Shown: positions 6,763 to 43,341 of the stretch, piece after piece
Numbering within the stretch: position 1 is the stretch's first letter
Layout of the letters: every line of letters starts with the position of its first letter
IMG/VR virus record: IMGVR_UViG_644736364_000008
Source of the DNA: a virus
Taxonomy: Duplodnaviria > Heunggongvirae > Uroviricota > Caudoviricetes
Reading direction: 5' to 3' (one strand)
DNA: 64,000 nucleotides
Made by a program: the position numbers and the translations under genes
The notes under the pieces: model-generated
Told to the model about the DNA's origin: nothing
What the model saw: only the letters and a program-made list of their open reading frames with translations
Databases searched by the model: none

Positions 6763-7065
6763 TCAGGCTGTCGGTAAACCGGCAAGCACCGACTTCTTCA
6801 ATAAAAAAGTGACAACCTCAACCGACATGGCAGTGAGATCTGCCGGGTCCATCTCTGCAATTTCCTGTGCAGTCAGTGCCGGACTGGAGATGCGGGAGAT
6901 CACGGTCATCATCGCGTTTACATCCATATCCATAATGGCCTGCAGGCGTGTACCGCGCAGCGCACCGGACTGCGGTTTACGCAGCACAATTTCGGTGATT
7001 TCTGTTTTACCGCGCTTGATGGGGGTATCCAGTTGAATGGTCTTTTCAGTCTGCTTATCGCTCAT
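6763..7065 (-). CDS. Tail assembly chaperone E (P2 gpE-like), with likely -1 frameshift extension E'
   Basis: 100-aa ORF between tail tube and tape measure; slippery T TTT TTA heptamer near its 3' end and a 126-bp apparently non-coding gap before T. Confidence 0.75.
   Translation of the reverse strand: MSDKQTEKTIQLDTPIKRGKTEITEIVLRKPQSGALRGTRLQAIMDMDVNAMMTVISRISSPALTAQEIAEMDPADLTAMSVEVVTFLLKKSVLAGLPTA
6802..6808 (-). other. Candidate -1 programmed frameshift site (TTTTTTA) for E+E'
   Basis: Heptamer in XXXYYYZ register of gene E codons ACT TTT TTA, 13 codons before the E stop; P2 E/E' uses the same mechanism. Confidence 0.5.
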
Positions 7066-7119
7066 TTTGCTGTCCTGTCAATTGGGTTCTGGCGCGGTAT
7101 CCCGCGCCGTTCAGATATA

Positions 7120-7635
7120 TCAGAGGCCGAGGGCGTTGCGGTGCGCTTCCATCAGGTCCACACCGTCCACAATTTCCACCATGTTGATAAGGTCCACTTC
7201 ATAGAGCACCTCACCATTGATGGTCAGCTTCGCGTAGCTGTTGGTACTGGTCACTTTGGTGGTGTTGCTTTCGCCCGTCTTCCACTCGCCGGAATCCACT
7301 TCTTTGTGACGTCCACGCACGACAAGCTCCACGGCCTGCACTTCCCCGGTATCGTCACGCTGAATAGAGCCGGTAAAGCGCAGCTGGATGCCATCCACCG
7401 TGGCTTTACCCATCTGTTTAAACAGCAGCAATTCAGTACCACCAATGGAAAATTCTGTGTCCAGCGCACTGTCATCAAGCCCCAGATCCACATCCACCGC
7501 ACCCGGCATTCCGCCGCCGCGATACTTCTCATATTTGCGGGTAAATTTCGGCAGCGTCAGCGACTCAACGATCCCCTGCCAGTTGTTCCCGTCGTTAAAC
7601 AGGTTCAGGTGTTTTAATTTGCGTGGTAAAGCCAT
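7120..7635 (-). CDS. Tail tube protein (P2 FII-like)
   Basis: 171-aa ORF directly downstream of the sheath gene. Confidence 0.85.
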   Translation of the reverse strand: MALPRKLKHLNLFNDGNNWQGIVESLTLPKFTRKYEKYRGGGMPGAVDVDLGLDDSALDTEFSIGGTELLLFKQMGKATVDGIQLRFTGSIQRDDTGEVQAVELVVRGRHKEVDSGEWKTGESNTTKVTSTNSYAKLTINGEVLYEVDLINMVEIVDGVDLMEAHRNALGL

Positions 7636-7644
7636 GTTGTCCCC

Positions 7645-8817
7645 TTACGCGCTGACCTGGCTGGCGAAATTCACCAGGTACTGATCGGTGATGCGCTGAC
7701 GCAGCATCAGGTTTTCAAGTGGCGGCACTGGCGTGTAGTCGTAGTCGATGGTGAGTTTTCCGGCTTTCAGCGTGTCTTTGTCGTTCACCGACTCATCCAG
7801 CCAGCAATCACCACCAATGAGATAGCCCTGACTGACCAGGCTGCGCATTTTGGCGCGGATACCTTCGATAATGTCGCGGGCCAGCGACGGGTTAAGCGGT
7901 TTATCCACCGCCCACATGTGTGCTTCTGCCATCGTGTCCATCAGCACCTGCGCCGTGCGGGTGTAGTTTTCGAAGGCAAAGAGCGGGTCATCACTCAGGC
8001 AGCGGGAACCCCAGAAGCGGAAACCGTCTTTACGCACAAGCGTGGTGACGTCGTTCTGGTTCAGCAGACCTGCATCGGTTGCCGGGTCCTGCAGATCCCA
8101 GAACACATCTGCAGAAATTCCGGTGACACCGTTCACGCCCACGTTGGACAGGCTTTTGTGCCATCCGGTCTGCTCGTCAATTTTGGCGCGCAGACCAAGC
8201 GCACGGGCGGTGGCATATGCCGTTGCTTCGGCATTCAGCACCGTGTCCCAGCCAGTAAAGTCAGGCCAGATCAGCATCCCTTCGCGCTGGCTGAAGTTTT
8301 CACGGTAAGTGATCGCCTCCTGTATCGTCTTGCAGCCATACGCTGACAGGTAAGCAAACCCACGCAGGCTTTGCGCCACGCTCAGCAACTCAGTAGCTAC
8401 CGCCTTGGTGTCGTGACCAGGTACACCCAGAATGCGCGGTTTAACGCCGAGCTGTGACTGGGCAGATAACAGGGCTTTCATACCTGTTTTTTTACCTTCA
8501 GCAGTCACTGCGCCGATGATATTGGTCGTGGTTTCGTCTTCCGTTTCACCCTGCGGCACACGCACAACAACGGTCACGGGTTTTGCCTGGTCAGCGATGG
8601 CATCCAGCGAACGGGCCAGCGTGCCGGACTCACCCGCTTTACCGCTGGCAGTCAGCACATCAGTGATCAGTACGGGTTTATTAAGAGGAAACATTTTTGC
8701 ATCGGCATCATCGCCCGTGCAGACCATGCCCACGATGGCGGTGCTCACCGTGGTAATGGATCGGGTGCCTTCGTTGACTTCAACAACGCGCACCCCGTGG
8801 TGGTAATCCTGAGCCAT
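7645..8817 (-). CDS. Contractile tail sheath protein (P2 FI-like)
   Basis: 390-aa ORF starting [21 protein letters not shown], first gene of the FI-FII-E-T-U-D operon. Confidence 0.9.
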
Positions 8818-8951
8818 AAGGCAGTCTCTCCGGTTGTAGAGGGGGTCTGCCTATGTTCTGGTTGATACACGCAGGGTGCACGCGATGGGTTTTGTATGGA
8901 AAATGGCACAACGACGGGGCGAAAAAATCCCCGCAGGCGCGGGGCAGGAAT

Positions 8952-9554
8952 TTAAATTTCTGGTAGTTTGGGCCAGTTAATATCAGGGGCTGTGCTGATA
9001 TCTATTGCTGCTACCACGTCGATATAGTCAAGAACGGAATCGAGCTTTACTGTTTCTTCCGCAGTTAATTTTCTTCCCGCCTGCAATTTTAGTTGAATCA
9101 GAACAATGGAAGACATGGCATCATCAATCAGTGACTGGCGTTGCAGTTCAGCCCCTTCCACTGCTGCGTTATGTTGCGCTTTGGTATCCGTCACCCATTT
9201 CTCACCATCCCACTTATCGTATGGTGTTAACGGAGCAATAGTGGTTGTCTTTTCAGGGTAATCTCCCGGCACTGTGATTTCTTTTGAGTCCCCCGTTTCG
9301 GTGTTATAGACGATTTCACCGCGATGGTCTGGCACATATTCCCATGATCTCAAATCCAGAGTTCGACAGGACACATAACCTGACTTATATGAACCAGGAG
9401 CATCTAAACACGAATGTGCGGGAATACCGACGCCAACAGCAAGATATTCAGTTGATTCAGAAATATATTCCCGTGTTTCACCATCATAGTTATAGACGGT
9501 AATATTCCCCGCCTTCGTGGCAATAAGTTCGCTATTTAATACGGCTTTATCCAT
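8952..9554 (-). CDS. Tail fibre assembly protein (P2 gpG-like)
   Basis: 200-aa ORF downstream of the tail fibre gene; about 85 percent identical to the second copy at 41993-42595. Confidence 0.8.
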   Translation of the reverse strand: MDKAVLNSELIATKAGNITVYNYDGETREYISESTEYLAVGVGIPAHSCLDAPGSYKSGYVSCRTLDLRSWEYVPDHRGEIVYNTETGDSKEITVPGDYPEKTTTIAPLTPYDKWDGEKWVTDTKAQHNAAVEGAELQRQSLIDDAMSSIVLIQLKLQAGRKLTAEETVKLDSVLDYIDVVAAIDISTAPDINWPKLPEI

Positions 9555-11179
9555 TACGCAGCTCTCACGATATAGTTAAATGCAATATTTCGTGGACGGG
9601 TTTCGCTCCCACCTGTGTTACCAATACTCCCTCGTGTATGTAGCGTTGGTGATGGAATCAGAGTCCCTCCGGCATCGGCAGCATCAAGCCCCCGGCCTTG
9701 CGTATATGCTTTTCTGAAGATTGCCGCCAGTTCCCATTCCTCTTTTGAATCATACCCATCGTTGGCTACAACCATATGGCGGTGTTTTTCCAGCATTCCA
9801 GCCTGAAGGCTCAATAAAGCACGCCCAGCATCAATACCACGCCCATCATCCCAGCCACGAATAAACTCACCACGTAAATCAGGCAATTTATTTGTCGGAT
9901 AAACCTTTGCCAGTTTGGGATATTCTTCAGCCGAAAAAGCCGCTCCGTTGCATTTCAGCCAGCCTGTCGGTGGAGTGGCAGAAGGCCACGGAACAGGGAC
10001 ACCAACAGGTAATGCAGAGCCATCCCCTAAACCAAGATAATCAAGAACGCCCTGTGCGCTGGGCCTGCTAAGAATGGTACGCCCAACACTTGTCAGTGCA
10101 GTTAAGGCAGCTCGATCTTCCCCTGTAAAATAAGGGAGTTTATCTTTTGATGTAGAAAGCCCTGCCAACGCCGTTAAAGTAGCATCCTTTGGCTGCTTCC
10201 CCGCAAGGGAGTTAGTTATTGTCGTGGCAAAGTTCGGATCATTCCCCAGCGCCGCTGCCAGTTCGTTCAGCGTATCCAGTGCCGCAGGTGCAGAACCCAC
10301 CATTGCTGCAATTGCCGATTTCACAAAAGCGGTAGTGGCAATCTGTGTATTGTTGACCGACTGCGCCGCCGTGGGAGCTGTTGGCGTTCCGGTGAGTGCC
10401 GGACTCGACAGCGGCGCTTTTTGTGCCAGTGCATTGTTAATGGTGGTACTGAATTTCGGATCATTGTTAATGGCTGCGGCTATTTCTTTCAGCGTGTCCA
10501 GGGTGGCTGGCGCACCATTAATAAGAGCCGTCAGAGCCGCCTGAACAAACGCGGTGGTCGCAATCTGCGTGGTGTTATTCCCTGCTGCTGGCGTTGGCGC
10601 TTTGGGTGTCCCGGTAAACGTCGGACTTTCTTTGGGTGCATACTGTGAATGCGGGTCCGGTGCGGCAAGATGTTTTGCCATCAGGTCATCCACGTACACC
10701 TTCAGCTCCAGTACCTTATCATCCACATACTTGCGGGTTGCCAGCACGACGGCAGGGTCGATTTTCAGGGTGATATTGTCCGTGCTGCTGGTTATCAGCA
10801 CCATGCGCACGGTCTGGGTACGTCCGCTGCCTTCAGCCAGTTGCGGCTTATAGCTTTCCGGGCAGTTTCCCACGGCAATCAATGCCCCGGACTCATCAAA
10901 CAGGCCCACTTCACGTATCCACCAACCGCCCTCGTTTTCAGGGATCACCTGTTCAGCAATAATCTGGCTGCTGTTCTGCGGGTCGATATAGAGCATATTC
11001 AGCGCAGCCCGGCGTTTCTCATTTACCAATGCTGTCTGCTTGGCGTCCGGCGTTGGCAATGTTCCGCCGCCATCGCCGACCGCCATATGGGTAATTTTTA
11101 AAGGCACACCGAGCGCGGCGGCGCTGGCAAGTTTCGCCGCGCCAATATCCGTCAGCAGGGTATAAAATTTTGTGCTCAT
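9554..11179 (-). CDS. Tail fibre protein (P2 gpH-like)
   Basis: 541-aa ORF with Ala/Thr-rich repeats; C-terminal block [35 protein letters not shown]...[15 protein letters not shown] shared with the tail fibre at 42595-43338. Confidence 0.8.
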   Translation of the reverse strand: MSTKFYTLLTDIGAAKLASAAALGVPLKITHMAVGDGGGTLPTPDAKQTALVNEKRRAALNMLYIDPQNSSQIIAEQVIPENEGGWWIREVGLFDESGALIAVGNCPESYKPQLAEGSGRTQTVRMVLITSSTDNITLKIDPAVVLATRKYVDDKVLELKVYVDDLMAKHLAAPDPHSQYAPKESPTFTGTPKAPTPAAGNNTTQIATTAFVQAALTALINGAPATLDTLKEIAAAINNDPKFSTTINNALAQKAPLSSPALTGTPTAPTAAQSVNNTQIATTAFVKSAIAAMVGSAPAALDTLNELAAALGNDPNFATTITNSLAGKQPKDATLTALAGLSTSKDKLPYFTGEDRAALTALTSVGRTILSRPSAQGVLDYLGLGDGSALPVGVPVPWPSATPPTGWLKCNGAAFSAEEYPKLAKVYPTNKLPDLRGEFIRGWDDGRGIDAGRALLSLQAGMLEKHRHMVVANDGYDSKEEWELAAIFRKAYTQGRGLDAADAGGTLIPSPTLHTRGSIGNTGGSETRPRNIAFNYIVRAA

Positions 11180-11781
11180 GGATTCACTCTCATTGTGTCA
11201 ATAACATGGACCGCCCCGCCTTCATGCGCGGTGCCGCCGGAAATAATTGTTTCGTTGATATACGGATAGATCGTGATTTCTTCGCCAAGATAGCTGGCGG
11301 CTCCCACCCAATGCGGGCCGCTGGTCTGCAGGTTGATGGACATGCCGATCATGTGACGGCTACATGGTTTGGCATCGCTTATCAGTCGCTCAAGTTCCAG
11401 ATAGGTATCTTCAGTGATGCCCTGGTCCTGCACGCCGATATCCAGACGAAACGTGCCCGGTGTCTCTCCGGTCTGCCACCACTCAATAATGCGGATCAGA
11501 AAGCCGAACGGCTCCACCACCCGCCGCACGGCACTGGTGGTCCCTTTATGCTGATGAATATAAAAAGCATCCTTCACCACCTGGCGCTTGACGCTTTCTG
11601 TCCAGCCCTCATCCCAGCGATCCACAGAGAACGCCCAGGCGAGATAAGGTAGGAAACTGACCGGACAGGTTGCCGGATTCCACAAGTCACGCAGCGGCAC
11701 CTGCAGATCAGAAATCCCGCTACAGGTCTGCGCCAGTCGGCGCTCCAGTGAAGTTGAACCCGGTGGCAGCAGACTATTCAT
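11176..11781 (-). CDS. Baseplate protein I (P2 gpI-like)
   Basis: 201-aa ORF between J and H in P2 order. Confidence 0.75.
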   Translation of the reverse strand: MNSLLPPGSTSLERRLAQTCSGISDLQVPLRDLWNPATCPVSFLPYLAWAFSVDRWDEGWTESVKRQVVKDAFYIHQHKGTTSAVRRVVEPFGFLIRIIEWWQTGETPGTFRLDIGVQDQGITEDTYLELERLISDAKPCSRHMIGMSINLQTSGPHWVGAASYLGEEITIYPYINETIISGGTAHEGGAVHVIDTMRVNP

Positions 11782-12682
11782 CCGTTCCTCCGTTGGTTAC
11801 GCTCCACTGCGTACATGATGCGGCCTGTGTTTTGTTCAGGACCACATCAGCCAGCGGTGAAGCCAGCTCCACACGTTGAACCCCCTCAACATGCAGCGCG
11901 GCAAAAATGGCACTACGGCGAATATCCCGACCAAGCCGCGTCTGACTGGCGATGTACTTCTGCAGGCTGGCTTTTGCCGCTGCCATTACCGGCTCTGCTT
12001 CGGGCCCCGGATAGAGAAAAATGGTGGCTTCCACGCGGTACGGGATGATTTCTGCGCTGCGAACCGTAAGACGGTCAGCCACCGGGCGGACGTTCTCACT
12101 GTTCAGGGCTTTCTCCACCACATCCAGCAGGTCTTTTTCTGCTGTTCCGTCGCCTTCGCGGCTAAGGACAGTCAGCACCACCTCTGCAGGTGCCGGGCTG
12201 GTTGCACTGGCATCCGCCACCCGACCGTCGGCGCTTCGGGCATGAAATTCATAAGCTGCAGTTGGCCCCGCAACTGAAAGCCCTTCAAAGGCTGCAGGCA
12301 CACGCAGGCGTAACGCTTCATCACTTTCCATCACTGCCGCAACGGGCGGCACAGCGTCATTATCAGCAGGCGTCACCGTCAGGCGTTTCACGTTGTAATT
12401 GGCAGCGAGCTGGTCCAGATCGCTCCCTATGGCATAAGCCGCCATCACCGCCTGCGCGGCTTCGTTAATGCGCTGGCGCAGAAGCAACTCACGATAAGCG
12501 TTCTCCTGCAACAATTTGGTGACGGGTTCAGATTCCAGTTCCAGCGTGCGGATCACTGCTTCCTGCTCATCTTTCGGATGAAGCGCCACAAATTCTGCCT
12601 TGCGTTCGGCAAGCAGCGTCTCAAAGTCCGGCACATCCACAATCTGCGGTGCAGGCAACTGCGAAAGGTCAATCACTGCCAT
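11774..12682 (-). CDS. Baseplate protein J (P2 gpJ-like)
   Basis: ORF 11774-12721; start placed at internal Met (MAVIDLSQLPAPQIV), which matches the P2 gpJ N-terminus. Confidence 0.8.
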   Translation of the reverse strand: MAVIDLSQLPAPQIVDVPDFETLLAERKAEFVALHPKDEQEAVIRTLELESEPVTKLLQENAYRELLLRQRINEAAQAVMAAYAIGSDLDQLAANYNVKRLTVTPADNDAVPPVAAVMESDEALRLRVPAAFEGLSVAGPTAAYEFHARSADGRVADASATSPAPAEVVLTVLSREGDGTAEKDLLDVVEKALNSENVRPVADRLTVRSAEIIPYRVEATIFLYPGPEAEPVMAAAKASLQKYIASQTRLGRDIRRSAIFAALHVEGVQRVELASPLADVVLNKTQAASCTQWSVTNGGTDE

Positions 12683-13028
12683 TCTCTGCTCCTGTTGATA
12701 CGGAAAGGGACACAGGTACACCGTTATTCCGCCGCCCGGTCAGCTCCACCATCATTGAACCGTCAAAATTGCTGTTGATGGTGATGGAATCCAGCATCAG
12801 CCGTGGCTCCCAGCGACTCAGCGCCACATACACTGCCGACATGACCTGCAGGCGTAATGCCGGATTTTGTGGCTGATCTATCAGTGCCGACAGCAGGGAA
12901 CCATATTCCCGGCGAGCAATGCGGCTACCCTGCGGTGTCAGCAGAATGTCCCGCACCGACTGGCGCAGATGGTCAATATCAGTAATGGCTTTACCGCTGG
13001 TATTGTTCATCCCGCTATAAAGCGTCAT
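12669..13028 (-). CDS. Baseplate wedge protein W (gp25-like)
   Basis: 119-aa ORF between V and J. Confidence 0.75.
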   Translation of the reverse strand: MTLYSGMNNTSGKAITDIDHLRQSVRDILLTPQGSRIARREYGSLLSALIDQPQNPALRLQVMSAVYVALSRWEPRLMLDSITINSNFDGSMMVELTGRRNNGVPVSLSVSTGAENGSD

Positions 13029-13603
13029 ACCGGGCCTCCGGTTGTATCGCCGCCTTTCAGGACGCCAGTATGCTGATGCGCATCAACCACGATCCCGTTA
13101 GAACTCATCGCACCGCCGCCCTGGGTAACGCCGCCATTGATCACTACTTCACTATTAATACGCGTGCGGTCAGCCTCCAGCACAAACTCACTGGTTTTCA
13201 GGGTGATATTGTCGGCAGCCTCAATAACCATGGATTTGATGCCCCTGACATACCAGCGCCCGGTGGCGGGTTCGTATTCAAACCAGCCACCGTCAGGATG
13301 TTCTGTCACGCAGGCGTCCGCCGACGTCGACGGTGGTGCGAACTGATTCGAATAGACAGCGGGCAGCGCAAAGGCGGTCTCCAGATTGCCGCCCAGACTC
13401 AGCAGCACCACCTGCTCACCTTCCGATGGTCGCCACCATGTCCGGGCATTCCCGGCACGCAGGGTCAGCCAGCTGATCCAGTTGGTTTCTAAGTCGCCTG
13501 TTTTCACCCGACAAAGCCAGTTTTCCCGGTCCACTTCGGTGACTACCCCAGTGCGGATCAGGTTGGTGATAAGGCGCATGATTTCGGTTAGTTGTGTGTT
13601 CAT
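13025..13603 (-). CDS. Baseplate spike/assembly protein V
   Basis: 192-aa ORF, first gene of the V-W-J-I-H-G operon. Confidence 0.8.
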   Translation of the reverse strand: MNTQLTEIMRLITNLIRTGVVTEVDRENWLCRVKTGDLETNWISWLTLRAGNARTWWRPSEGEQVVLLSLGGNLETAFALPAVYSNQFAPPSTSADACVTEHPDGGWFEYEPATGRWYVRGIKSMVIEAADNITLKTSEFVLEADRTRINSEVVINGGVTQGGGAMSSNGIVVDAHQHTGVLKGGDTTGGPV

Positions 13604-13741
13604 GAAAATAGACTGCTATATCTCAAAATTGAGAAGTAGCTTTGATAGTTGTATCACGGCTGTCACAAACAACTGGCAAAAAACGACTACTATCTATAAA
13701 TTATTGAGAGTTATCTCATTAACAAAAAAGAAGCTTGGTAA

Positions 13742-15442
13742 ATGGAACACTTAAGACAACTGCAAAATAAAACTTCCCTGTTAGAAAAGTACGGGACTAG
13801 TAACGCACATCTTTTATGGTCATTAGGTCTTTACTTAGATGAATCCGATTTTGATAAGCTAGCATCTGATGGACTTACTGATGGTGGAAACGATAAGAAA
13901 ATAGACTTCATTACCGTAATTAATTCAACGTTATTTATTGCTCAGGGTTACTACTGCAATCAGCAAGCACTTAAAATAGTTGCGCCTGCAAATAAAGCTT
14001 CTGACTTAAACACTGCTTTAGCGTGGATTATGGCAGGCTCAGGAGAGTCTCCAAATGCAAAATTAAGAGCAAAAATTTCTGAGGTTAGAAAATTAATTGA
14101 TGATAACGAAATTGAAGCTGTTGAATTATTATATATCCATAATTGTGCCGAATCTGAGCAGGTTAAAACTGAGCTTGAAACTTGTCGTGACTATCTAGCA
14201 GGTAGATTTGCAGACAAAGAAATTGAGGTAACTTACAGAGAACTTGGTGTTAATAGTCTTGAAAAATTGTATATTGCGCTATCACAACAAATTGTTGTGA
14301 CTGACAATATAAAGTTCAATGGCGAACTTATAAATTCTGTACAAGGTGATGGCTGGACTTCACATGTTGGCTTTGCAAACGGCACTTGGCTAAATTATTT
14401 ATACAAAAATTATGGAGCAGAATTATTTTCTGCTAATTATAGGGGGTTCATGGGATTAAATAAGAGAAGAAAAATAAACTCATCAATTAAGAATACCGCA
14501 GAAACATCCCCAAAAGACTTCTTTGTCTTTAACAATGGTGTATCAATCCTAACAACAAAATTCAACAAAGAAAAAGGGTTGTTGGAAGGAGTTTCAATCA
14601 TAAATGGAGCTCAAACCACTGGTTCTATTGGTTCAGTTCAAGATATACAAAAATTAGATGGCCTAAAAGTCCTTTGTAAGGTTATTGAATGTAATGATGC
14701 GGACAAAGTAAAAAAAATAGTCCAGTATAATAATACTCAGAATCATATTACAACCTGGGATCACTACTCTAACAGCACAGAACAAAAACAGGTGGCAGAA
14801 GAATTTTCCACTCTTGGTTATACATATTCACTGAAACGCGGCTTCGAAAATACTGGTTCTTTATTTGGCATTGAGTCTGTTGCTCAACCGCTGATAGCGT
14901 TACATGGGGATTATGTTAGCGCCAATAGAGGTAAAAACTACGTTTTCGATACAAAATCAGCCTATGACAATGCCTTTCATGATTCGAAAGCCCAGCATAT
15001 TTTATGTGCTTACACTATTTCAAAAGCTATAGAAAAAGTAAAATCTCAAATCCGTGCAAAAGAGAATAAAATTAAAGTAGATGAGGATAACTTATTATTC
15101 CTCCAAAATTTAAAGTCTCGATTCTTTTTAATATCCGTCATCGGAGAAATACTTGAAGAATTAACAGATAAACCTTTGAACAAGAAGAAAATAAAATATA
15201 AATATGATACAGCATTATCTAAAAATAACTCTCTGGATGATTTAATCGACCTTTGGACACCAGTTATAACTGCGATATTACCACATGTTATCCGTGTTTC
15301 AGGTCAAGATTTAACCACCTACTTATCTGTAACAGACAACCCGTTATCTATCGTATCAAAGGAAGTTAAAAACATATTAACATCCTTAAAAGCGTTCCAA
15401 CCGATTGAGCCATTAATTACTCTTTCAAATCACCTTGAATAA
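13742..15442 (+). CDS. Cargo protein, 566 aa, candidate abortive-infection (AIPR-like) protein
   Basis: Low-GC ORF on the opposite strand between V and S; contains FFVFNNGVSILTT...INGAQTTGSIG, reminiscent of an NGxQT core; own AT-rich upstream region. Confidence 0.6.
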   Translation: MEHLRQLQNKTSLLEKYGTSNAHLLWSLGLYLDESDFDKLASDGLTDGGNDKKIDFITVINSTLFIAQGYYCNQQALKIVAPANKASDLNTALAWIMAGSGESPNAKLRAKISEVRKLIDDNEIEAVELLYIHNCAESEQVKTELETCRDYLAGRFADKEIEVTYRELGVNSLEKLYIALSQQIVVTDNIKFNGELINSVQGDGWTSHVGFANGTWLNYLYKNYGAELFSANYRGFMGLNKRRKINSSIKNTAETSPKDFFVFNNGVSILTTKFNKEKGLLEGVSIINGAQTTGSIGSVQDIQKLDGLKVLCKVIECNDADKVKKIVQYNNTQNHITTWDHYSNSTEQKQVAEEFSTLGYTYSLKRGFENTGSLFGIESVAQPLIALHGDYVSANRGKNYVFDTKSAYDNAFHDSKAQHILCAYTISKAIEKVKSQIRAKENKIKVDEDNLLFLQNLKSRFFLISVIGEILEELTDKPLNKKKIKYKYDTALSKNNSLDDLIDLWTPVITAILPHVIRVSGQDLTTYLSVTDNPLSIVSKEVKNILTSLKAFQPIEPLITLSNHLE

Positions 15443-24307: not shown

Positions 24308-25717
24308 TTACTCATCTACTCTGATTTTTTGTTTTTTATTATTTTGAGTTAAGACATTTATGGTAATAGATGTATACGGATGAAAGTCAGGCACTATACT
24401 TTTAACCTCTCCATTTTCAAGAAAATGATGTGCTATTGAAGGAAATAAATCAGGATCTACAGGATATTTAGCATTAGGATTATGATACATATTTAAACCT
24501 TCTGCCCATGTTTCTGTAATATCGCCTTCTTTCACTTCAAAACTAAATGCTGCTGGATATAATGCCTCTGGGTCATGATCATGGCAGTAACCACTCCTAA
24601 ATAATCTAAGGTCACTTCTTCCAAAACCAGCCAGTTTTCCCATCCGATTAAACTTCGATATAGTACCACTATTAGAACTAAGGACGGCCGAAATATTTTC
24701 AGACTCATCCAAGAAGAAAAAGCCTGAAGGAATTTCCTTTTTCTCAAATTGATGCGATATAATTTTCTTAGTTGCTAAACTGTAACATCCATCTTCAGAT
24801 TTAACATGCTCATAGCGAATACCATAAAGATACTGCCAAAGTGCACTATGGGACCAAATCATAGAGTTTGGTTCATGAAAATCAGCAATTGCGAAAATTA
24901 AAGGATTCCCCTTAACATGTTCTAGATCCCAGTATCGAGTTTTCTTTTTCAGTTTAGAATAGAGAGAACTTCCAAATTTAATCGGCATATAATTCTCTAT
25001 TTTCTCTAGCAATTCTTCCTTACTTTTAGGTTCAGATAGCATTTCAGATGATTGATTAATATCATTCCCTGTTGGATTAACCGTTACAGCTTCAATGCAA
25101 ATAGTATTACCATACTTACGTGCCACATAATCAGGGGCATTAAACTGCCTATCTAGCCAAAAGTGTTCCTCTCGTAAATATGCGAAAAGATATAACTCCC
25201 ATAGCCGGGCATCAAAACCTGTTGTCTGAAACTGCTCTATAAAATTCCCGTCGACATCCTCAAAATGATTCATCATTTCCTTGATTATCCCTGTTGCAGG
25301 CGACCAGTTCGCATATTTACCAAATAATGAAAAATGATGATGAAGTTTATCTGGTGTAACTATAGGTGTGAATAAATCCATTGCTTTATAAGTTTCATCA
25401 CCTTGTGGAAATACTTTTACGTTTAATTTAGTATGCTTCCGCATTAATTTCTTTAGTTTTGCTCGTGCAGAATTCATTTCTGAAACACTAGTAAATAGGT
25501 CAATACATCTATATCTCCCACTTAAGTCTCTTGCTAAAACAATACCGCTATAATCTTCATCGATTTGATCCAATAATAGTGCCCCTAGCAGGAACTCTCT
25601 CGGACTACAGTACCACTCAAACTCATAGCCTAAAAGTTCAGTATTTGGCATTCTGGTCCAATCAACAAAAGCATTAAACCTCTCTTTACTCATTTTTTTT
25701 ATATCAAGAAAAGACAT
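24308..25717 (-). CDS. Hypothetical cargo protein, 469 aa (no recognisable motif)
   Basis: Low-GC ORF between portal gene Q and cos; no P-loop or nuclease motif detectable by eye. Confidence 0.6.
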   Translation of the reverse strand: MSFLDIKKMSKERFNAFVDWTRMPNTELLGYEFEWYCSPREFLLGALLLDQIDEDYSGIVLARDLSGRYRCIDLFTSVSEMNSARAKLKKLMRKHTKLNVKVFPQGDETYKAMDLFTPIVTPDKLHHHFSLFGKYANWSPATGIIKEMMNHFEDVDGNFIEQFQTTGFDARLWELYLFAYLREEHFWLDRQFNAPDYVARKYGNTICIEAVTVNPTGNDINQSSEMLSEPKSKEELLEKIENYMPIKFGSSLYSKLKKKTRYWDLEHVKGNPLIFAIADFHEPNSMIWSHSALWQYLYGIRYEHVKSEDGCYSLATKKIISHQFEKKEIPSGFFFLDESENISAVLSSNSGTISKFNRMGKLAGFGRSDLRLFRSGYCHDHDPEALYPAAFSFEVKEGDITETWAEGLNMYHNPNAKYPVDPDLFPSIAHHFLENGEVKSIVPDFHPYTSITINVLTQNNKKQKIRVDE

Positions 25718-26624: not shown

Positions 26625-26981
26625 TTAATACAGGTTCCGCCACTGATCATCTTCCTGCAAACGCTGGTTCCGATAGAAGATACGCAGGCCTGCTCCTGAC
26701 GGAATACTGCCTCCGCGAAGGAGTAAATCGACCTCTTTCTCGCTGCCATCAAATCCTCTGGACTTCAGCTCATACACGAGCTGCAGTCGCTGATGGTCTG
26801 TAATTCGCTGTTTGTAGTCTTTACGCCGTTTCGGTTTCACCAGGCGTAACCTTGCTGCCAGTTCCCGGCGCTCTTTTTTGCTCATACTGTGCAGGTAATC
26901 GTGCAACTCCTTGTCATCCATGCTGGTAATGTCCGTTCTGGGGTCCCCATCAGCTGATTTATCTTTCTCCTGTTGGTTCAA
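26625..26981 (-). CDS. 118-aa ORF, possibly the displaced C-terminal part of replication protein A
   Basis: Begins at a TTG right at the A stop; becomes in-frame with A if one copy of the 26-bp tandem repeat is removed. Confidence 0.45.
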
Positions 26982-29065
26982 ATTTTCAGCAAGGGGACAG
27001 TTATTGCCACGAGTCCAAGGGGACAGTTATTGCCACGAGTCCAAGGGGCGCAAGCGCCCTGGTCGGCTGCCGCCTCCTGAATGTCAACGGCCTTACGAAC
27101 CATTTTCCACTTCACCGCATGAGTGCAGATCTTGCCCTCTGCAATGGGTGACCAGATGCCATAAATACGAATACCGTGATCGCCATAGGCGGTCGGCTCT
27201 TCGTTGATTTCATAAGCGGTTCTGATGAGGTGATATTTGCGGGGAACCAGTACGCCGCCCTGCTTCATGATGTAGGTGGCAAAACAACCAGCATCAGCAG
27301 CGGCTAGGATGGCATCAAGGCGCGGGTTATCCAGTACCGGCGCACCTGCTTTTTTGTCCCCCTGTTGCCTTGCCGCCTGACCAGCCAGCAATCGCAGTTC
27401 ACGGTAAGCCTGACGCCCCGGAATGCCAAAGAAGCGGAATTGCTGAACACGATGCAGAGACGCCCAGGCATTAACGTATTCAGCGTTATCACGCAGGGAT
27501 TTACCCGTTTCCTTGCTGATCTCGCCAGCCAGACCACGCCCGTCAATGTTCTTACTGATGTATTTCGCGATGTAGCTTGTTGGCGTACCTTTGCGCGGGT
27601 TTATCAGCTCAGACTTAAAGCGTGGTTCCGTGTTATTACCCAGCTCCTCGCGGTCTTCACGAATGGCAAACTTACGCAACAAAGCAGTAATGGCGCGGCG
27701 ATCTTTTTTGCGCATAAAACACAACAGGTGCCAGTGAACTGTACCGTCATGATGCGGCTCAGCCACCCGCACGCCATACCAGCGTAATCCGGCTTTGTGC
27801 ATCGCCTTACGAAATGCAGCAAACATACCGACCAGATAATCACTGCTTTGTCTTACCGTCGCATTTGTCCAGGTCGGGTTGGGCCTGCCGTTATTTAGCG
27901 TGGAATGGAAACGTGACGGACAGGTGATGGTGTAGAAAACGGCGCAGTCACCGCGCATTTCCGCGATAAGCTCCAGACCTTTAACACAGGCCATCATCTC
28001 ATTGCGGCGATGCGCAGGGTTGCTGCTGCTGGCGTTTACCACGTCTTCCATATCCAGCGTGTCGCCGTCTTCGTTCACCAGTTCATGAGAACGGAAAAAC
28101 TCCAGCGACTTACGGCGCTGCTCACGTTTATGCATCACGGCTTCATAGCTGACATAGGGAGATGCTTTTTTGCTGACCAGGCAAACAGCACGCAACTGCT
28201 CTTCCCGCCATTCGCAACGCATCTTCCATAATTTCCGATACCACCAGTCGGCGCATAACATACGCGCCAGCGAACCCGGAATGAGTTCATAAGGCACGGG
28301 TTTACGGCGGTTTCTTTTCCGACGGAGTTGCTCAAACGCAGGCGGGATAACATCCAGACGCAGGGTTTCCGCTGCCACCTTTTCCCATGTTTTGCGGATT
28401 TCTTCTGGCTTAATGTCATCGGTGGCATACAAATCACCACAAGCTGCATCAAGGCACATGCTCATATGCGCGGCGACAAGGGTAGACAGGCGCTTCACCT
28501 GATCCTGACTCATTTCAGGCAGGATCAGCAGGCCGTCCAGCCCTTCATGGCTTGCCATAAAGCGAAAAGAAGTGGATAGCTGACAGTCGCGTACATGCTC
28601 CAGTCGTTCCAGACATGGCTTAATCGTCTCACGCAAATAGCGGGAATAAGCCTTTGGCCTGCCCAGGCTGCTGAAGTATTCAATACGTTGCATCAGCGGC
28701 TTGCTGATATGGGAAGGCTGGGCGTTAACGTCCGCCAGAATGACCATGTCTGGATTAAAACGCTGCTGCTCATGCGCCAGCTTTGCCCGGCTAATGAGCT
28801 TATCCTGCTCCATTTCGCGTTGGACAGGATCACGGGATTCATTAAAGAAATAACGCTCCCAGGCCTGATCACTCAGTGCCTCGCGGCGCAGCTGTTCCTG
28901 CTCGTTATCGGCAGCGTACAGAGTGATCAGGTTTGAAAGCGCAGAAACCGGCGCGACTTCCGCCGGGTCCAGATAAGGGTTAATGGCCTTTTTCGGGCTG
29001 TTCCATGAGAACGCTGCGGCAGCCTCGTTAAAGCCGCAGCAGTTGTTCATATCGGCATGACTCAT
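26978..29065 (-). CDS. Replication initiation endonuclease A (rolling-circle, P2 gpA-like)
   Basis: 695-aa ORF containing the YIAKYISK active-site tyrosine pair. Confidence 0.85.
26991..27048. repeat. Perfect 26-bp tandem duplication (2.2 copies) at the 3' end of gene A
   Basis: AAGGGGACAGTTATTGCCACGAGTCC repeated head-to-tail, then AAGGGG. Confidence 0.85.
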
Positions 29066-33771: not shown

Positions 33772-34995
33772 ATGCGCAACATTATCGAATTAGAACAGAT
33801 ATCGGAAGAACTAAAAAAACATGAACTATTGCAACCCCCATTCATTGCCGAGGGAAAACTAATTTCTGACTTTTCTAAGAGAGTCGAGTGCTATTTAGAA
33901 TTAATTGACTCCATTAGAAATAAATATCCTGACAACGAGATAATTAAACAAGTAAAGATTCGCACAAAATCAATAATATATTTATCTGATAAAATAATAG
34001 AAACTCTTAAGCTATTTTTAATAGGAAATGTTAAAGAAGCTTATAAAAAATTCGATTTGGCAATTACCAAGTCATCAATGCATACTCATCTTTATAAGAT
34101 GACTGTTCCTCTAACTAAATTATGCAACCCACACACCCCTTTATTTCGCGTAAGGAAAAGTGAGTGCATCCTAAAACAAAGAGAAGAATTATTTCATATA
34201 CCATTTAAAAATAGACATTTAGTTAGCGCACAAAGATTTTCTGTATCCGGTCTTCCATGTTTATATCTTGGAACATCAATATTTGTATGTTGGCAAGAAA
34301 TGGGAAAACCTGACTTTGATAAACTTTACATATCTTCCTTCATATCCGATAAAGAAAATTCAAATATAAGAATTTTAGATCTTGGGTACAATTTAACATC
34401 TGCACTTCGTACAAAACCGGGAGATCTTTGGTATTCATTCGAACAAGGTTCAGATGATGATTACGATCTAAATAATGATAATTTCATGGATCAAATTAAT
34501 GATAAAATTTCAAAGTTGATTGCATGGCCTTTAGTCCTTGCATGTAACTATACAAAAGATAATGAAAACGCAAGTTTTAATAAAGAATACATAATACCAA
34601 ACCTATTAATGCAATGGATTAGTAGTGACAGAAACAAAAATATATCAGGGATATCGTATCGATCAACAAAGATATTAAACCAAAAAGATAGCGATATTGG
34701 GATTAATGTAATTATCCCCCCAAAAATAGAAAACATAGTTGAAACCAATGATACCCACTGTCCTGTTTTAAAAAAAATATTTAGAGTTACAAACCCTGTT
34801 TCCTGGACTGTGTTTAGTACACTAGAAGCCACCCCCTATCTATACAAAAATAATTTTAATTTTTCGACCTATAATCCCGCAAAAGGATGGATTGAAGACT
34901 TTGATGAATCCCTTGTTGAACATTATGAAAATACCACTTTTAGAAAAGTTGAACTCCTTATTCATCAAATGATGAAGTATGAATATTTAAAATAA
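33772..34995 (+). CDS. RES-domain protein (407 aa), candidate NAD+-targeting toxin/abortive-infection effector
   Basis: LFRVRK...AQRFSVSGLPCLYLGTSIFVCWQE...IRILDLGYNLTS parallels RES toxin motifs (YRY...GGRWNPP..FPAIYLADS...E...LAVLDLT in MbcT); low-GC; 4 bp after int stop. Confidence 0.6.
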   Translation: MRNIIELEQISEELKKHELLQPPFIAEGKLISDFSKRVECYLELIDSIRNKYPDNEIIKQVKIRTKSIIYLSDKIIETLKLFLIGNVKEAYKKFDLAITKSSMHTHLYKMTVPLTKLCNPHTPLFRVRKSECILKQREELFHIPFKNRHLVSAQRFSVSGLPCLYLGTSIFVCWQEMGKPDFDKLYISSFISDKENSNIRILDLGYNLTSALRTKPGDLWYSFEQGSDDDYDLNNDNFMDQINDKISKLIAWPLVLACNYTKDNENASFNKEYIIPNLLMQWISSDRNKNISGISYRSTKILNQKDSDIGINVIIPPKIENIVETNDTHCPVLKKIFRVTNPVSWTVFSTLEATPYLYKNNFNFSTYNPAKGWIEDFDESLVEHYENTTFRKVELLIHQMMKYEYLK

Positions 34996-35111: not shown

Positions 35112-35157
35112 ATGTAGGAATTTCGGACGCGGGTTCAACTCCCGCCAGCTCCACCAA
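35112..35157. repeat. attR: second copy of the 46-bp ssrA 3'-end repeat
   Basis: Exact repeat of 1016-1061. Confidence 0.8.
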
Positions 35158-37115: not shown

Positions 37116-37940
<825 letters not shown>

Positions 37941-38337: not shown

Positions 38338-38517
38338 ATGCGTATTGAGATCTCCATAGCCAAAGACAAAATGACCAAATGCCAAACGGCGCTGTGGACG
38401 CGTTAAAGGAAGAATTAACCCAACACATTGGCAAGCGTTATGACGATGTGGAGATGATCGTAAAAGCCACCAGCAACGATAGTTTTTCAGTTAGACATAC
38501 TGCAGATAAAGATTGAG
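38338..38517 (+). pseudogene. dinI-like gene interrupted by a frameshift
   Basis: Frame 1 [16 protein letters not shown]... stops after 22 codons; a shifted frame continues ...[32 protein letters not shown], together resembling DinI. Confidence 0.45.
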
Positions 38518-38880
38518 CTAAAACTTTCGTTCAGGAAACTCTGAATGATACCTGAGAGTCTACTGAAGAGTTGTTTGTTCACTAGTTAGCACGTAGGAAA
38601 TCATTCAATACTCGCACTATCGGAAGTTCACCAGCCAGTCGTAGCACGTCCTTGCAAACGACGTGCCTACGGTTTCAATCACCTCTCACCATCAATTCTA
38701 TCAATAATAATTAAACAGCGCCTAGACAAAATAAATAACAACAAGTCAACAACCTCGACAGGATGCCGATGGGATGATGAAGAGATAAGAAAGAATAACC
38801 AGTAAAGCCCTAAAACGTCAGCGTTCAGACGCGTTTTTTACTTAATCGGTAACAAATACGTTGTATCATAGCAAAATAAA

Positions 38881-40830
38881 ATGATTGTTCTAAATCAGAT
38901 TAACTCCTCACTTTTGTACAATGTCGCTTACAGGTATACCATGAAATCCGAGACGCTAACTGTCCAACAACTTTTTCAAGACCGCCGACAATACTGTGTT
39001 CCATTCTATCAACGTGCCTATGTATGGACTCAGCAAGACCAGTGGTCAGCTCTACTGGAGGATATCCTAGAGAAAGTACAATCCCGGCTCTCGGGTACAA
39101 AACCAACTCCCCATTTCCTTGGTGCGGTTGTACTGGAACCTCAATCAAAAAAAGGATTATTAGGTGTAGATTCCATACATATTATTGATGGTCAGCAACG
39201 ATTGACCACTCTTCAATATGTTCTGGCATCCATCCGATTAGCATTACGTGCTACGGATCTTTCCAGCTTAGAGGCTCTCATTTCGCCTTGCCTGAAAAAC
39301 TCAAACGAAGACACAATGCGAAATAAAGAAGTAGAACGCTTCAAACTGTGGCCAACTTTTCGGGATCAAACTCATTTTATTCAAAGTTTTAATGTTGAAA
39401 ATATTGACGATCTCCGGGACGTATTCTCTGATAGTTTCACGCAGCATGGTACGTTGCGTAAGCATTTTAATCACCCGCCATCACTAGAAGCATTATGTTT
39501 TTTTACTGAAGCCTTTATAAAATGGATTAAAATAGAAAACCACTCACCACAAGAAAATGCTGTAGCTCTAATTGAGGCTGTCTTAACAGATCTGAAACTG
39601 GTAAGCATATTTCTCGAAGCTGAAGATGATGCCCAAATAATTTTTGAAACATTAAATGGGCGAGGGGCGGAACTTCATGCTACGGATCTTATTCGCAACT
39701 ATATCTTTATGTGCGCTGAGCATGAAAATATTAATGCTATTGAATTATATGAAAATGAGTGGAAGAGCTTTGAAGATAAATACTGGTCGGAAAAACAACG
39801 CCGTGGACGTATTAATAAACCACGCATGGAGTGGCTAGTACATGCGACATTGCAATCAGAAAGGCAACGTGAAATTGATCTGTCTCGCCTTTACAATGAG
39901 TATCGTGATTATGTAAGTAAGGACTTGTCTTCACAACGAGCAGATCTGCAAGTAAAGCGCCTCAAACAATATGCATCACAATATAAAGAATTGGTTGATG
40001 GTTTTGGCACAACCCCCATCTCACACTTTGGATATCGCATCGCAGACTATGATGTGACGACACTTTATCCGCTTGCTTTGTTCATTTCGATAGCTAACAT
40101 CGCTGATGATGAGAAAGCAGCCATGTATAATGATCTTGTCTCCTACGTAGTACGAAGAGCCGTATGTGGCCTGACGCCAAAGAATTACAACAATGTATTT
40201 ATGAATGTATTGCGGCACTTGGCTAAAACGGAAATTTCCAGTGTTGAGTTACGTAATATCCTCAATAACTTAAATGGCGAAGCCTCACGTTGGCCTGGTG
40301 ACTCAGAATTTCTCAACGCTTGCATCAATGCTCCACTTTATCCTGGCAGGCTCGACGCACCGAAAATGCGCTCAATGTTAACGGAACTTGAAAGAGAACT
40401 TTGTCGCCAAGTAAAGACAGAAAAGCCTGATGTTCCAAATCTTTCTAATCTCGATATCGATCATCTTATGCCTCAAAGTTGGTATTCCTGTTGGCCTCTC
40501 GAAAATGGTCGTATGGTGACAAATTCAGATGCTACGGTATTGAACCAAATTGTTCTGTCTGGAACCGATCTTACCCCTGAACAGCTACTGGTAAGGAAAC
40601 GGCAACAAGCGATATCTACTTTGGGAAATCTAACTTTGCTTAACCTTAGCGTAAACCGTTCTGTTCAGAATGCTGTATTTCTGAAAAAACGTGATGCTCT
40701 CATCGTCCACACCAATCTACGACTGAACATTCCACTTATAGTTAAGGATAAATGGGATGAGGATGAAATCCTGGAGCGGGGTAAAAAGTTGGGGGAAATT
40801 GCATTGAAAGTATGGCCAAAACACGATTAA
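38881..40830 (+). CDS. GmrSD-family type IV restriction endonuclease (DUF262 + DUF1524/HNH-like)
   Basis: N-terminal IIDGQQRLTTLQY (DGQQR motif) and C-terminal DIDHLMPQSW ... GNLTLLNLSVNRSVQN His-Me finger motifs; alternative start at 38941. Confidence 0.75.
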   Translation: MIVLNQINSSLLYNVAYRYTMKSETLTVQQLFQDRRQYCVPFYQRAYVWTQQDQWSALLEDILEKVQSRLSGTKPTPHFLGAVVLEPQSKKGLLGVDSIHIIDGQQRLTTLQYVLASIRLALRATDLSSLEALISPCLKNSNEDTMRNKEVERFKLWPTFRDQTHFIQSFNVENIDDLRDVFSDSFTQHGTLRKHFNHPPSLEALCFFTEAFIKWIKIENHSPQENAVALIEAVLTDLKLVSIFLEAEDDAQIIFETLNGRGAELHATDLIRNYIFMCAEHENINAIELYENEWKSFEDKYWSEKQRRGRINKPRMEWLVHATLQSERQREIDLSRLYNEYRDYVSKDLSSQRADLQVKRLKQYASQYKELVDGFGTTPISHFGYRIADYDVTTLYPLALFISIANIADDEKAAMYNDLVSYVVRRAVCGLTPKNYNNVFMNVLRHLAKTEISSVELRNILNNLNGEASRWPGDSEFLNACINAPLYPGRLDAPKMRSMLTELERELCRQVKTEKPDVPNLSNLDIDHLMPQSWYSCWPLENGRMVTNSDATVLNQIVLSGTDLTPEQLLVRKRQQAISTLGNLTLLNLSVNRSVQNAVFLKKRDALIVHTNLRLNIPLIVKDKWDEDEILERGKKLGEIALKVWPKHD

Positions 40831-41080
40831 TGCAATTAATAAAATGATTATAGTGGCCTTACATTAGTAAGGCCGCTACTCACTATTAAATACTTTAATT
40901 TGCATCAAGAACAGCAGTGTCAGCCCTAGGTCTCGGACTTTGTACCGCTTATCTTGTCTTCAAAAATCAGCTCGCATCCTGCACAGTTCAGCGCATTACG
41001 TTGTAGATCTGTGTTCTGGTCATTTGTTGACACACGTACATAGCCAATAAGCATGGTAGATCTCCCTGACAAAAGCAGGA

Positions 41081-41575
41081 ATGATGCCATTTGCTCGTTA
41101 TTTCTGCATTTTCATAAACGTTGGTTTGGGAGAAGCGGCAAAACGGAATGTGGGCAACGGGGAAAACCAAATCCCTGATATGTCTTTCTGGACGGTTACT
41201 GGTGGCAATGGAAATTTTGTGATTCGTCAACCTGACGGGCTAATCATTCAGATGGTTACTGTAAGTATAAGCGGCCCAGTGGCGATGAATGGAATGACTG
41301 ATAATGCTTATGCCATCACAGGTTCTAATAAGTCTTATATTGCCACAGCCACATTGCCCTTTGTATTTCCTAATAAGGTGCTGGGCGTTATCCCTCTGGT
41401 ATCAACAACAGCTTATGGTGGTGTATCCAGTAATATTACAGGTTCATACGCGACGGCGGTTTGTTCTTTTGCCGCTGTCAGGGGGAATAATACGATTGTG
41501 TTCAAAGTCGACAAACCACTGAATGCAGCCTTTCCTTCAGATACCAGCGTCTCAGCGTTAATCATTGGACGGTAA
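41081..41575 (+). CDS. Alternative tail-fibre C-terminal cassette (S'v-like)
   Basis: Gly/Ser/Thr-rich 164-aa ORF in inverted orientation; its codons 11-18 (FINVGLGE) carry the crossover site. Confidence 0.55.
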   Translation: MMPFARYFCIFINVGLGEAAKRNVGNGENQIPDMSFWTVTGGNGNFVIRQPDGLIIQMVTVSISGPVAMNGMTDNAYAITGSNKSYIATATLPFVFPNKVLGVIPLVSTTAYGGVSSNITGSYATAVCSFAAVRGNNTIVFKVDKPLNAAFPSDTSVSALIIGR

Positions 41576-41577
41576 TA

Positions 41578-42021
41578 ATGAACTCAGTATTCTTTTCACC
41601 CGGAAGTAAAAGTTTTTATCTGCAAGAATTGTTTCCAGAATATGAGGATGCGGGAACGCTTCCTGATGATGTTATTGAAATTACCAGAGAAACATATGAG
41701 CAATTTCTTGGTCTGCATCCAGAAGGGAAAGAAATTGGCGCTGACAGTTCAGGACGGCCAGTATGGATTAATTCCCCACCCCCTTCAAAAGAGGATGAGG
41801 TGTTGACGGCTGAAATGAAAAAAATATCTTTGGTTTCAGAAGTCAATACCTACATCAATACCCATCAGTGGCCTGGCAAAGCTGCTATTGGTCGTCTGAA
41901 AGGCGAGGAACTGGCGCAATATAATTCGTGGCTGGATTATCTGGACGCACTGGAACTGGTCGATACTTCCTGTGCGCCAGATATTGAATGGCCTACGCCT
42001 CCGGCAGTTCAGGCCAGATGA
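41578..42021 (+). CDS. Alternative tail-fibre assembly protein (U'-like)
   Basis: 147-aa ORF following S'v; 3' end overlaps the convergent tfa gene. Confidence 0.6.
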   Translation: MNSVFFSPGSKSFYLQELFPEYEDAGTLPDDVIEITRETYEQFLGLHPEGKEIGADSSGRPVWINSPPPSKEDEVLTAEMKKISLVSEVNTYINTHQWPGKAAIGRLKGEELAQYNSWLDYLDALELVDTSCAPDIEWPTPPAVQAR

Positions 42022-42595
42022 CATCCGGCGCTGTGCTGGTATTTGTTGCCGTCACCGCGTCAATGTAATCCAGCACAGCGTTAAGCCGGGTTGTTTCTGC
42101 CTGCATCAGCTTCCGTCCGGCCTGTAATTTCAGCTGAATCAGACCGATGGAAGCCATTGCAGCATCAATCAGTGACTGACGCTGTGCTTCTGCCGCGTCT
42201 ACTGCGGCGCTATGCTGTGCCTCAGTATCGGTCACCCATTTCTCACCATCCCATTTATCGTATGGCGTTAATGGGGCAATAGTGGTTGTATTTTCGGGGT
42301 AATCACCCGGTGCTGTGATTTGTTTTGATTCTCCCGTTTCGGTGTTATAGACGATTTCACCGCGATGGTCTGGCACATATTCCCATGAATTTAAATTCAC
42401 AGAACGACAGATAGCATAACCCGCCTTATGTATACCTGGTGCATCCAGACAGGAATATGCCGGGATACCAACACCAACGGCAAGATATTCACTTGAAGTG
42501 GAAATATATTCCCGAGTTTCACCATCATAGTTATAAACGGTAATATCCCCTGCCTTTGTAGCAACAAGTCCACTATTTAATATTGCTTTATCCAT
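41993..42595 (-). CDS. Tail fibre assembly protein (U/Tfa)
   Basis: 200 aa, about 85 percent identical to the P2-like copy at 8952-9554. Confidence 0.8.
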   Translation of the reverse strand: MDKAILNSGLVATKAGDITVYNYDGETREYISTSSEYLAVGVGIPAYSCLDAPGIHKAGYAICRSVNLNSWEYVPDHRGEIVYNTETGESKQITAPGDYPENTTTIAPLTPYDKWDGEKWVTDTEAQHSAAVDAAEAQRQSLIDAAMASIGLIQLKLQAGRKLMQAETTRLNAVLDYIDAVTATNTSTAPDVIWPELPEA

Positions 42596-43338: not shown

Positions 43339-43341
43339 GGA

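Follow-up and report, generated by a model that had tools for sequence, protein, structure and literature searches.

The locus described here raises the question of why two prophages of different type, lying side by side, carry similar copies of one and the same piece of a tail fibre. It is found in a 64,000-nucleotide (nt) stretch of viral DNA (IMG/VR record IMGVR_UViG_644736364_000008, Caudoviricetes; the whole stretch is from now on referred to as the window), in which an initial annotation had noted a near-identical block consisting of the distal part of a tail fibre gene and the tail fibre assembly gene (tfa) that follows it, and had proposed both an exchange of receptor-binding modules and a possible fusion of the two prophages by recombination between the copies. 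Positions 7000–14000 are 100% identical to Escherichia coli MS7163 (NZ_CP026853.1), a urine isolate, and the window belongs to this strain, in which an e14/SfV-like prophage (below called e14-like) comes after a P2-like one integrated in ssrA. The analysis indicates that the two copies are very probably diverged (~80–90% identical) representatives of a widely exchanged fibre-tip/chaperone module, and that the locus is a case of ordinary phage mosaicism and no likely fusion hotspot.

Both tfa genes, at 8952–9554 in the P2-like and 41993–42595 in the e14-like prophage, exist as first described, on the minus strand and encoding 200 amino acids (aa) each. A self-BLAST of the 64-kb window gave exactly two matches between the prophages, the first covering 8959–9605 and 42000–42646 (648 columns, 80.7% nucleotide identity, E 3e-171) and the second 9819–10036 and 42833–43050 (218 nt, 90.4%, E 4e-81), the sole other match being a 46-bp attachment (att) repeat. 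On sequence comparison this similarity is far beyond chance, and the direct orientation of the copies about 33 kb apart is borne out by offsets of 33,041 nt for tfa and 33,014 nt for the block in the fibre genes, both on the minus strand, as is the sharing of the final 15 fibre codons, the last 15 residues of both fibres being identical. The pairwise nucleotide identities of 80.7% and 90.4% also lie above the 70% below which the initial annotation would have given up its claim.

The strength of the similarity had, on the other hand, been overstated. The Tfa proteins are 78% identical (156/200; 79% at the nucleotide level, ungapped) instead of about 85%, and long identical runs are present but do not exceed 56 nt in tfa or, at 9840–9902 in the fibre block, 63 nt. 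This block is real but measures 218 bp instead of 200 and begins at 10036/43050, not at 10040. It comprises 73 codons of which 67 encode the same amino acid in both fibres, and between it and the shared fibre ends 61–70 codons cannot be aligned at all (9606–9818 versus 42647–42832). Nonsynonymous (dN) and synonymous (dS) divergence was 0.13 and 0.86 for tfa and 0.04 and 0.36 for the fibre block, which does not fit the term near-identical, and dN/dS between the copies is ~0.1–0.15, with dS saturated in the last 50 codons of tfa and one local window of this gene at 97% identity. Each copy is moreover present unchanged in many genomes without the other, the P2-like module at 97.5–100% in genomes with only one such locus and the e14-like module at 100% in UTI89 and further genomes devoid of the P2-like copy. 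Because dS is 0.36–0.86 and dN/dS ~0.1–0.15, the sequences argue for two old paralogues, 80–90% identical in nucleotides and maintained by purifying selection, with no recent exchange within this genome. The observation that started the study is thus partly confirmed, real but overstated in strength.

To understand what the shared pieces are, the encoded proteins were compared with known domains and structures. The P2-like fibre gene (9554–11179, minus strand, 541 aa) is of the gpH type and combines an N-terminal PF12571 domain with the C-terminal collar/tip module, while the e14-like fibre gene (42595–43338, minus strand, 247 aa) consists of a constant N-terminal part fused at a crossover site to a variable collar/tip part. 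PF07484 (Phage Tail Collar) was found in both fibres (52.4 and 57.7 bits, cutoff 24) and PF02413 (Caudo_TAP) in all three tfa genes of the locus (104.6–105 bits for both 200-aa proteins and 98.1 bits for a 147-aa alternative, cutoff 22.1). The P2-like gene, annotated in RefSeq as 'tail fiber assembly protein', is of the gpG/Tfa type (PF02413 E 5.5e-30), and its product is a predicted chaperone. The tfa genes lie directly downstream of the fibre genes with overlapping start and stop codons at 9554 and 42595, an arrangement that points to translational coupling.

The C-termini of both fibres match T4 gp37 (PDB 2XGF) twice, in a stretch that starts at chain index 27 and in the last ~24 residues, the latter aligning over 11 residues and retaining the motif NIAFNYIVR(L/A)A. 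In gp37 the collar domain D10 is made up of residues 811–881 and 1010–1026, with the needle/tip domain D11 (882–1009) inserted into it (Islam et al. 2019, PMC6957217). Since the match to 2XGF is in two stretches and gp37 has this layout, the 218-bp block and the last 15–17 codons together make up one gp37-type collar domain that is split in two. The block (9819–10036 in the P2-like fibre, aligning to 2XGF from index 27, and 42833–43050 in the e14-like fibre) forms the N-terminal two-thirds of the collar, and the last 17 codons (9554–9605 in the P2-like fibre) a C-terminal strand closing it. The stretches that cannot be aligned, 70 codons at 9606–9818 and 61 Ser/Gly-rich codons at 42647–42832, correspond to the inserted distal tip, which presumably binds the receptor and carries specificity, by analogy with gp37. 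The tip being the unalignable insert, the shared part would exclude the receptor-contacting region, and the two fibres probably have scaffold and chaperone in common but not the receptor. An exchange of the receptor-binding part between these two copies, as first proposed, is accordingly not what is seen, as no recent exchange is indicated and the tip is not shared. For Mu S (5YVQ) the match is weak (E 0.006) and confined to the constant N-terminal part of the e14-like fibre, and a sequence search of Tfa against solved structures gave no match at E<=0.01.

Downstream of the tfaE-type assembly gene of the e14-like prophage (41993–42595, minus strand, 89% nucleotide identity to tfaE of K-12 e14) a second tfa and a second fibre C-terminus were found on the opposite strand, so that two alternative sets of variable end and chaperone face each other within an invertible P-type segment of ~1.93 kb (41121–43049). 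The second set consists of a 147-aa assembly gene (41578–42021, plus strand) and a variable end Sv' (41081–41575, plus strand, 164-aa open reading frame (ORF)) with a gp53-like C-terminus (PF21882, E 5e-05, below its cutoff), at present not fused to a constant part and adjoining an invertase remnant. All four genes are flanked by a 20-nt inverted repeat (41116–41135 and 43035–43054). The full 26-bp sites, TTCTCCCAAACC-AA-GGTTTTCGAGAG and TTCTCCCAAACC-AA-CGTTTATGAAAA, are identical to both pix sites of the P segment of K-12 e14. They are placed in inverted orientation with a matching core dinucleotide, the left one at 41109–41134 (reading TTTTCATAAACG-TT-GGTTTGGGAGAA along the window) and the right one, TTCTCCCAAACC-AA-GGTTTTCGAGAG, at 43036–43061 inside the fibre ORF; the constant part of the fibre thus lies outside the segment. 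No further pix-like site was found in the 64-kb window. The convergent tfaE (minus) and 147-aa tfa (plus) overlap by 29 nt at their 3' ends (41993–42021), the overlap encoding the conserved C-terminal motif of both proteins, and the same arrangement is seen for tfaP and tfaE in K-12 e14. The adjoining serine invertase gene, pin (40932–41054, minus strand, PF00239), is not intact: its C-terminus is deleted and the 41 codons left are identical to PinE residues 1–41, followed by a GmrSD gene. The first 123 nt of pin are kept, and the Fis-dependent recombinational enhancer of such segments normally lies within the 5' part of the invertase gene.

The homology between the P2-like and e14-like copies begins at 10036/43050, which coincides with the right pix core. 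At this point the P2-like fibre gene has a vestigial crossover-site-like sequence (10022–10047), with an inner half matching in 9 of 12 positions, an outer half that is unrelated and no partner site. When the P2-like tip alone was used as a query it was recovered in 81 genomes, and the e14-like tip in 108 of the 5,426 complete E. coli genomes. The places where it was found include prophages of different types: an e14-like invertible segment in PigCaeca_1 (99.6%), accompanied by YmfQ, the gp47 and gp46 baseplate genes and a frameshifted recombinase and integrated at dusA; another baseplate type in KOr019 (96.4%); and a P2-like prophage with an intact invertase in ETEC1749 (87.9%). Against PigCaeca_1 the P2-like copy aligns without gaps from the pix core almost as far as the end of tfa, and the alignment contains a tract of 419 nt (window 9898–9480) with 2 mismatches (99.5%), flanked by ~86% identity on the collar side and 60–94% (mostly 70–84%) on the tfa side. 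Such a pattern is the signature of homologous recombination by which a P2-like and an e14-like phage recently exchanged the tip, the breakpoints lying in the conserved arms. Searches of phage databases showed the two-piece match, in which the arms are kept and the tip is not, in P2-like, lambdoid (HK97/HK106), P1-sized, SfIV, Klebsiella, Citrobacter and Salmonella phages. The proposal of modular exchange was consequently right in kind, as seen both in this match among unrelated phages and in the 419-nt tract.

The orientation of the e14-like copy was addressed by building a synthetic inverted left junction, in which GmrSD and the truncated pin are joined to the collar block. This junction was found in 68 complete genomes at >=80% coverage, at least 23 of them with full coverage and >=99.8% identity, including IHE3034, APEC O1 and PMV-1, and the equivalent native junction in 78, a ratio of roughly 1:1 with the same GmrSD/truncated-pin flank in all; only these two symmetric counts are comparable with each other, other genome counts being based on different queries. 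The flanks in IHE3034 match the window at 100% identity, and the stretch 41116–43054 lies the other way round, with 2 of its 1,939 nt mismatched (99.9%); the left pix site is an inversion breakpoint there, and Sv' is joined to the constant part. UTI89 does not differ from the window between 40700 and 43500 (100% identity), and a 'phage inversion at 2.9 Mb' was validated by polymerase chain reaction (PCR) in cultures of this strain (mSphere 2019, PMC6458436). The three primers used map to 40317–40336 (one indel), 42182–42201 (inside tfaE) and 43880–43899 (ymfQ), which identifies them, from their sequences, as a three-primer design around exactly this segment, and because of the PCR validation an assembly artefact is an unlikely cause of the orientation polymorphism. 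Being part of a segment that inverts site-specifically and is seen both ways (78 native, 68 inverted), the e14-like copy has no fixed direct orientation: the term direct repeats holds for this assembly but describes the current switch state, and in the other state the two copies would be inverted repeats.

Both orientation classes carry the same truncated pin, and from this shared flank the segment must have inverted after the truncation. For the continued flipping in the lineage an invertase acting in trans is the likeliest cause, and inversion of the e14 P segment in trans by PinQ has been documented (PMC12529663). In UTI89 the invertase of a P2/186-like prophage adjoining serS at 0.91 Mb (L009 33975–39125) is intact, and gix-like sites, TTCCTGTAAACCGAGGTTTTAAATAA and TTCTCGTAAACCGAGGTATTCGATAA, surround the fibre segment of that prophage. 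The invertase that acts in trans on the 2.9-Mb segment probably comes from this prophage.

Among the alternatives, the one that survives best, although it must be called unlikely, is an extension of the exchange described above: the collar and tfa blocks would be portable homology arms that swap only the ~200-bp tip cassette among co-resident or co-infecting phages, and the P segment of the ST95-type lineage, bereft of its own invertase and switched in trans, would provide the host with a phase-variable repertoire of fibre fragments or decoys with a StfE2-like anti-phage role. A related and improbable reading places the emphasis on the host entirely, so that the e14-like segment would be kept as a phase-variable decoy against phages and the module would serve defence and not virion host range. 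A precedent is found in the homologous e14 P segment of K-12, which is inverted in trans and whose StfE2 blocks the adsorption of T2 (Kirigo et al. 2025, PMC12529663). The MS7163 prophage looks defective, with a frameshifted holin gene and a truncated pin, yet its segment is intact, with both orientations common, and adjoins the GmrSD restriction gene. For this allele, however, such a role would stand by analogy, the tips differ from those of K-12 stfE and stfP, and the conservation may be due to no more than the recent origin of the ST95-type lineage.

More doubtful still is the proposal that the two copies form an active hotspot of homologous recombination, deleting 33 kb and fusing the prophages. 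The copies are directly oriented in this assembly, and at 56 and 63 nt their exact runs are longer than the ~25–30 nt that is reportedly the minimal processing segment for RecA recombination. The identities of only 80.7% and 90.4% do not amount to high identity over hundreds of bases, however, and divergence of this order is said to strongly suppress recombination controlled by RecA and MutS; with 10–20% divergence and exact runs of at most 63 nt, RecA-dependent recombination between the copies would be inefficient. In addition, the e14-like copy can switch its orientation, and recombination in the other state would lead to inversion and not deletion. When a query joining the P2 sheath (7952–8951) to the e14-like constant part and ymfQ (43062–44061) was used, by which a fused prophage would show as one place, the predicted junction was found in none of the 5,426 genomes, a search of low power since the tandem occurs in only 2, both of which are intact. 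A deletion product would also lose essential genes of both elements. Deletion and fusion across the copies is possible in the present orientation, but the reading lacks support and depends on how the segment is switched. That the two neighbouring prophages recently underwent gene conversion or exchange with each other is hardly credible and as an intragenomic event effectively refuted, as the proximity of 33 kb and the local 97% window in tfa stand against dS values of 0.86 (tfa) and 0.36 (collar), against the presence of each copy, at the identities given above, in genomes without the other, and against the family-wide conservation of the highly conserved stretches.

Some points weigh against the preferred reading, that of old and diverged copies of an exchanged module whose e14-like member is switched in trans. 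The inserts are far shorter than in T4 gp37 (61–70 aa against 128 aa) and contain a single HxH motif, an HRH in the 70-aa P2-like insert, the 61-aa e14-like insert having none; receptor binding by the divergent insert is something we infer from T4 gp37. The low power of the junction search belongs here as well. As to the invertase, the serS-adjacent prophage of UTI89 is absent from MS7163, and no second Pin-like gene was found on the MS7163 chromosome at megablast sensitivity, a search that does not cover divergent invertases and plasmids. A query combining the barcode, pinE and a P2-type invertase found one extra place in MS7163, most simply the pin remnant itself, and the native junction query that includes this remnant found a single place. 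The segment is therefore probably locked in MS7163, and a candidate for the trans-acting invertase was found for a minority of the genomes.

For the exchanged module the most probable course of events is as follows. The distal fibre module is a mobile cassette consisting of the collar, the inserted tip, the closing C-terminal strand and the gene for the cognate Tfa chaperone, of a type long familiar from P2 H/G, Mu S/U, P1, e14 and lambda stf/tfa, and is the sole sequence common to both prophages. Its upstream boundary coincides with a Pin/Gin-type crossover site, and the e14-like cassette lies within the 1.93-kb P-type invertible segment, which still flips in the lineage with its own invertase truncated. 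As the 419-nt tract shows, homologous recombination within the conserved collar and tfa arms swaps the tip between phage types. A 33-kb deletion between the copies would be mechanistically possible in the present orientation and is expected to be rare.

The surroundings of the two modules, with the gene order across the whole window taken from the RefSeq annotation, are those of two neighbouring prophages. The window starts with smpB followed by ssrA (698–1060), and a 46-bp exact direct repeat (1016–1061 and 35112–35157), equal to the 3' end of ssrA, bounds the P2-like prophage as its att repeat. This prophage is integrated in the 3' end of ssrA with the e14-like prophage directly after it. 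It holds homologues of ogr, D, U, T, E, FII, FI, G, H, I, J, W and V. These are accompanied by an AIPR gene, by genes for lysis and the head, by a replication gene with a frameshift, by the C repressor and by an integrase. The e14-like prophage contains cargo genes, GmrSD, the truncated recombinase, the fibre genes and ymfQ, together with a baseplate and sheath of the Mu type, a head of the HK97 type and genes for terminase and lysis, and it extends beyond the end of the window, with its integrase ~11 kb further on. The e14-like prophage of UTI89 and most relatives lies immediately next to ssrA. In the window the P2-like element is inserted between ssrA and the resident e14-like prophage; the tandem junction occurs in 2 of the 5,426 complete genomes, MS7163 and N53. 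A third P2-like prophage of MS7163, at pflA, has no invertase.

Because the replication endonuclease gene of the P2-like prophage (26625–29065) and the holin gene of the e14-like prophage (62534–62838) are both annotated as frameshifted pseudogenes, both prophages are probably defective, the e14-like one being nearly full length. Several possible cargo genes were noted. A gene of the AIPR (abortive infection phage resistance) family (13742–15442) is encoded on the opposite strand, with the P2-like baseplate gene V on one side and the tail-completion genes on the other, and since close relatives of the prophage match only as far as 13603 this position is a variable cargo slot. Two sizeable genes annotated as 'hypothetical protein' are found at usual P2 cargo positions, one adjoining the portal gene (24308–25717) and one just after the integrase and before attR (33772–34995), and are possible candidates for defence or moron genes. 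A type IV restriction gene of the GmrSD type (DUF262/DUF1524, 38881–40830) is situated beyond pin, where K-12 e14 has mcrA, so that this slot at the prophage end holds different restriction cargo in the window and in K-12 e14. A LEM-3-like GIY-YIG gene (37116–37889) and a DinI-like pseudogene (38338–38555) are located near it.

Fibre-module mosaicism, the e14 P segment and the UTI89 inversion are all already known, and that fibre-tip/chaperone modules pass between P2, Mu, P1, e14 and lambdoid phages has stood in textbooks since the early 1990s. What the locus adds is a worked example, in which a '200-bp block plus last 15 codons' is shared as the halves of a split collar and in which the tip is swapped by recombination in conserved arms (the 419-nt, 99.5% tract between P2-like and e14-like phages). 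It also illustrates that the orientation of a repeat cannot be read from a single assembly and that a segment can go on inverting after the loss of its own invertase, points of use in prophage annotation and in the engineering of fibre host range.

The closest known system is the P segment of K-12 e14 (stfP-tfaP/tfaE-stfE/pinE). Besides the two identical 26-bp pix sites it has the same gene order as the window, with ymfQ, fibre, tfa, inverted tfa', inverted Sv' and pin, named in e14 ymfQ, stfP, tfaP, tfaE, stfE and pinE and followed by mcrA. The nucleotide identity is 89% for tfaE, 94% for the collar block, 95.5% for the flank outside the right pix site (the fibre constant part and the start of ymfQ, 43034–43500) and 95% for the pin-side flank, and a type IV restriction gene lies beyond pin in both (mcrA in K-12 e14, GmrSD in the window). 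The window differs from K-12 e14 in its pin of 41 codons, in having other tip inserts and in the nearly full length of its prophage, and the collar/tfaE set is fused to the constant part in the window while the corresponding set is the unfused one in MG1655.

Horizontal transfer of fibre genes among unrelated phages has reportedly been described for P2 H/G, Mu S/U (G segment) and P1 S/U (C segment). As in that case, a P2-type fibre C-terminal part and its chaperone are here homologous to the variable part of the invertible segment of an unrelated phage, and the homology begins at a crossover-site-like sequence; unlike Mu S, the collar and tip in the window are of the gp37/lambda-Stf type. With the T4 gp37 tip (2XGF) they share the split collar with an inserted distal domain, the C-terminal NIAFNYIVR(L/A)A and a dedicated chaperone gene directly downstream. 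The differences from T4 are that the insert is 61–70 and not 128 aa long, with one HxH (P2-like) or none (e14-like) against the seven iron sites of T4, and that the chaperone is of the Tfa type (PF02413) and not gp38. In the lambdoid phages HK97 and HK106 the collar block and tfa of the stf/tfa genes are 82–89% identical in nucleotides to the copies in the window and show the same two-piece pattern, as parts of siphovirus side fibres without an invertible segment, unlike the e14-like copy described here.

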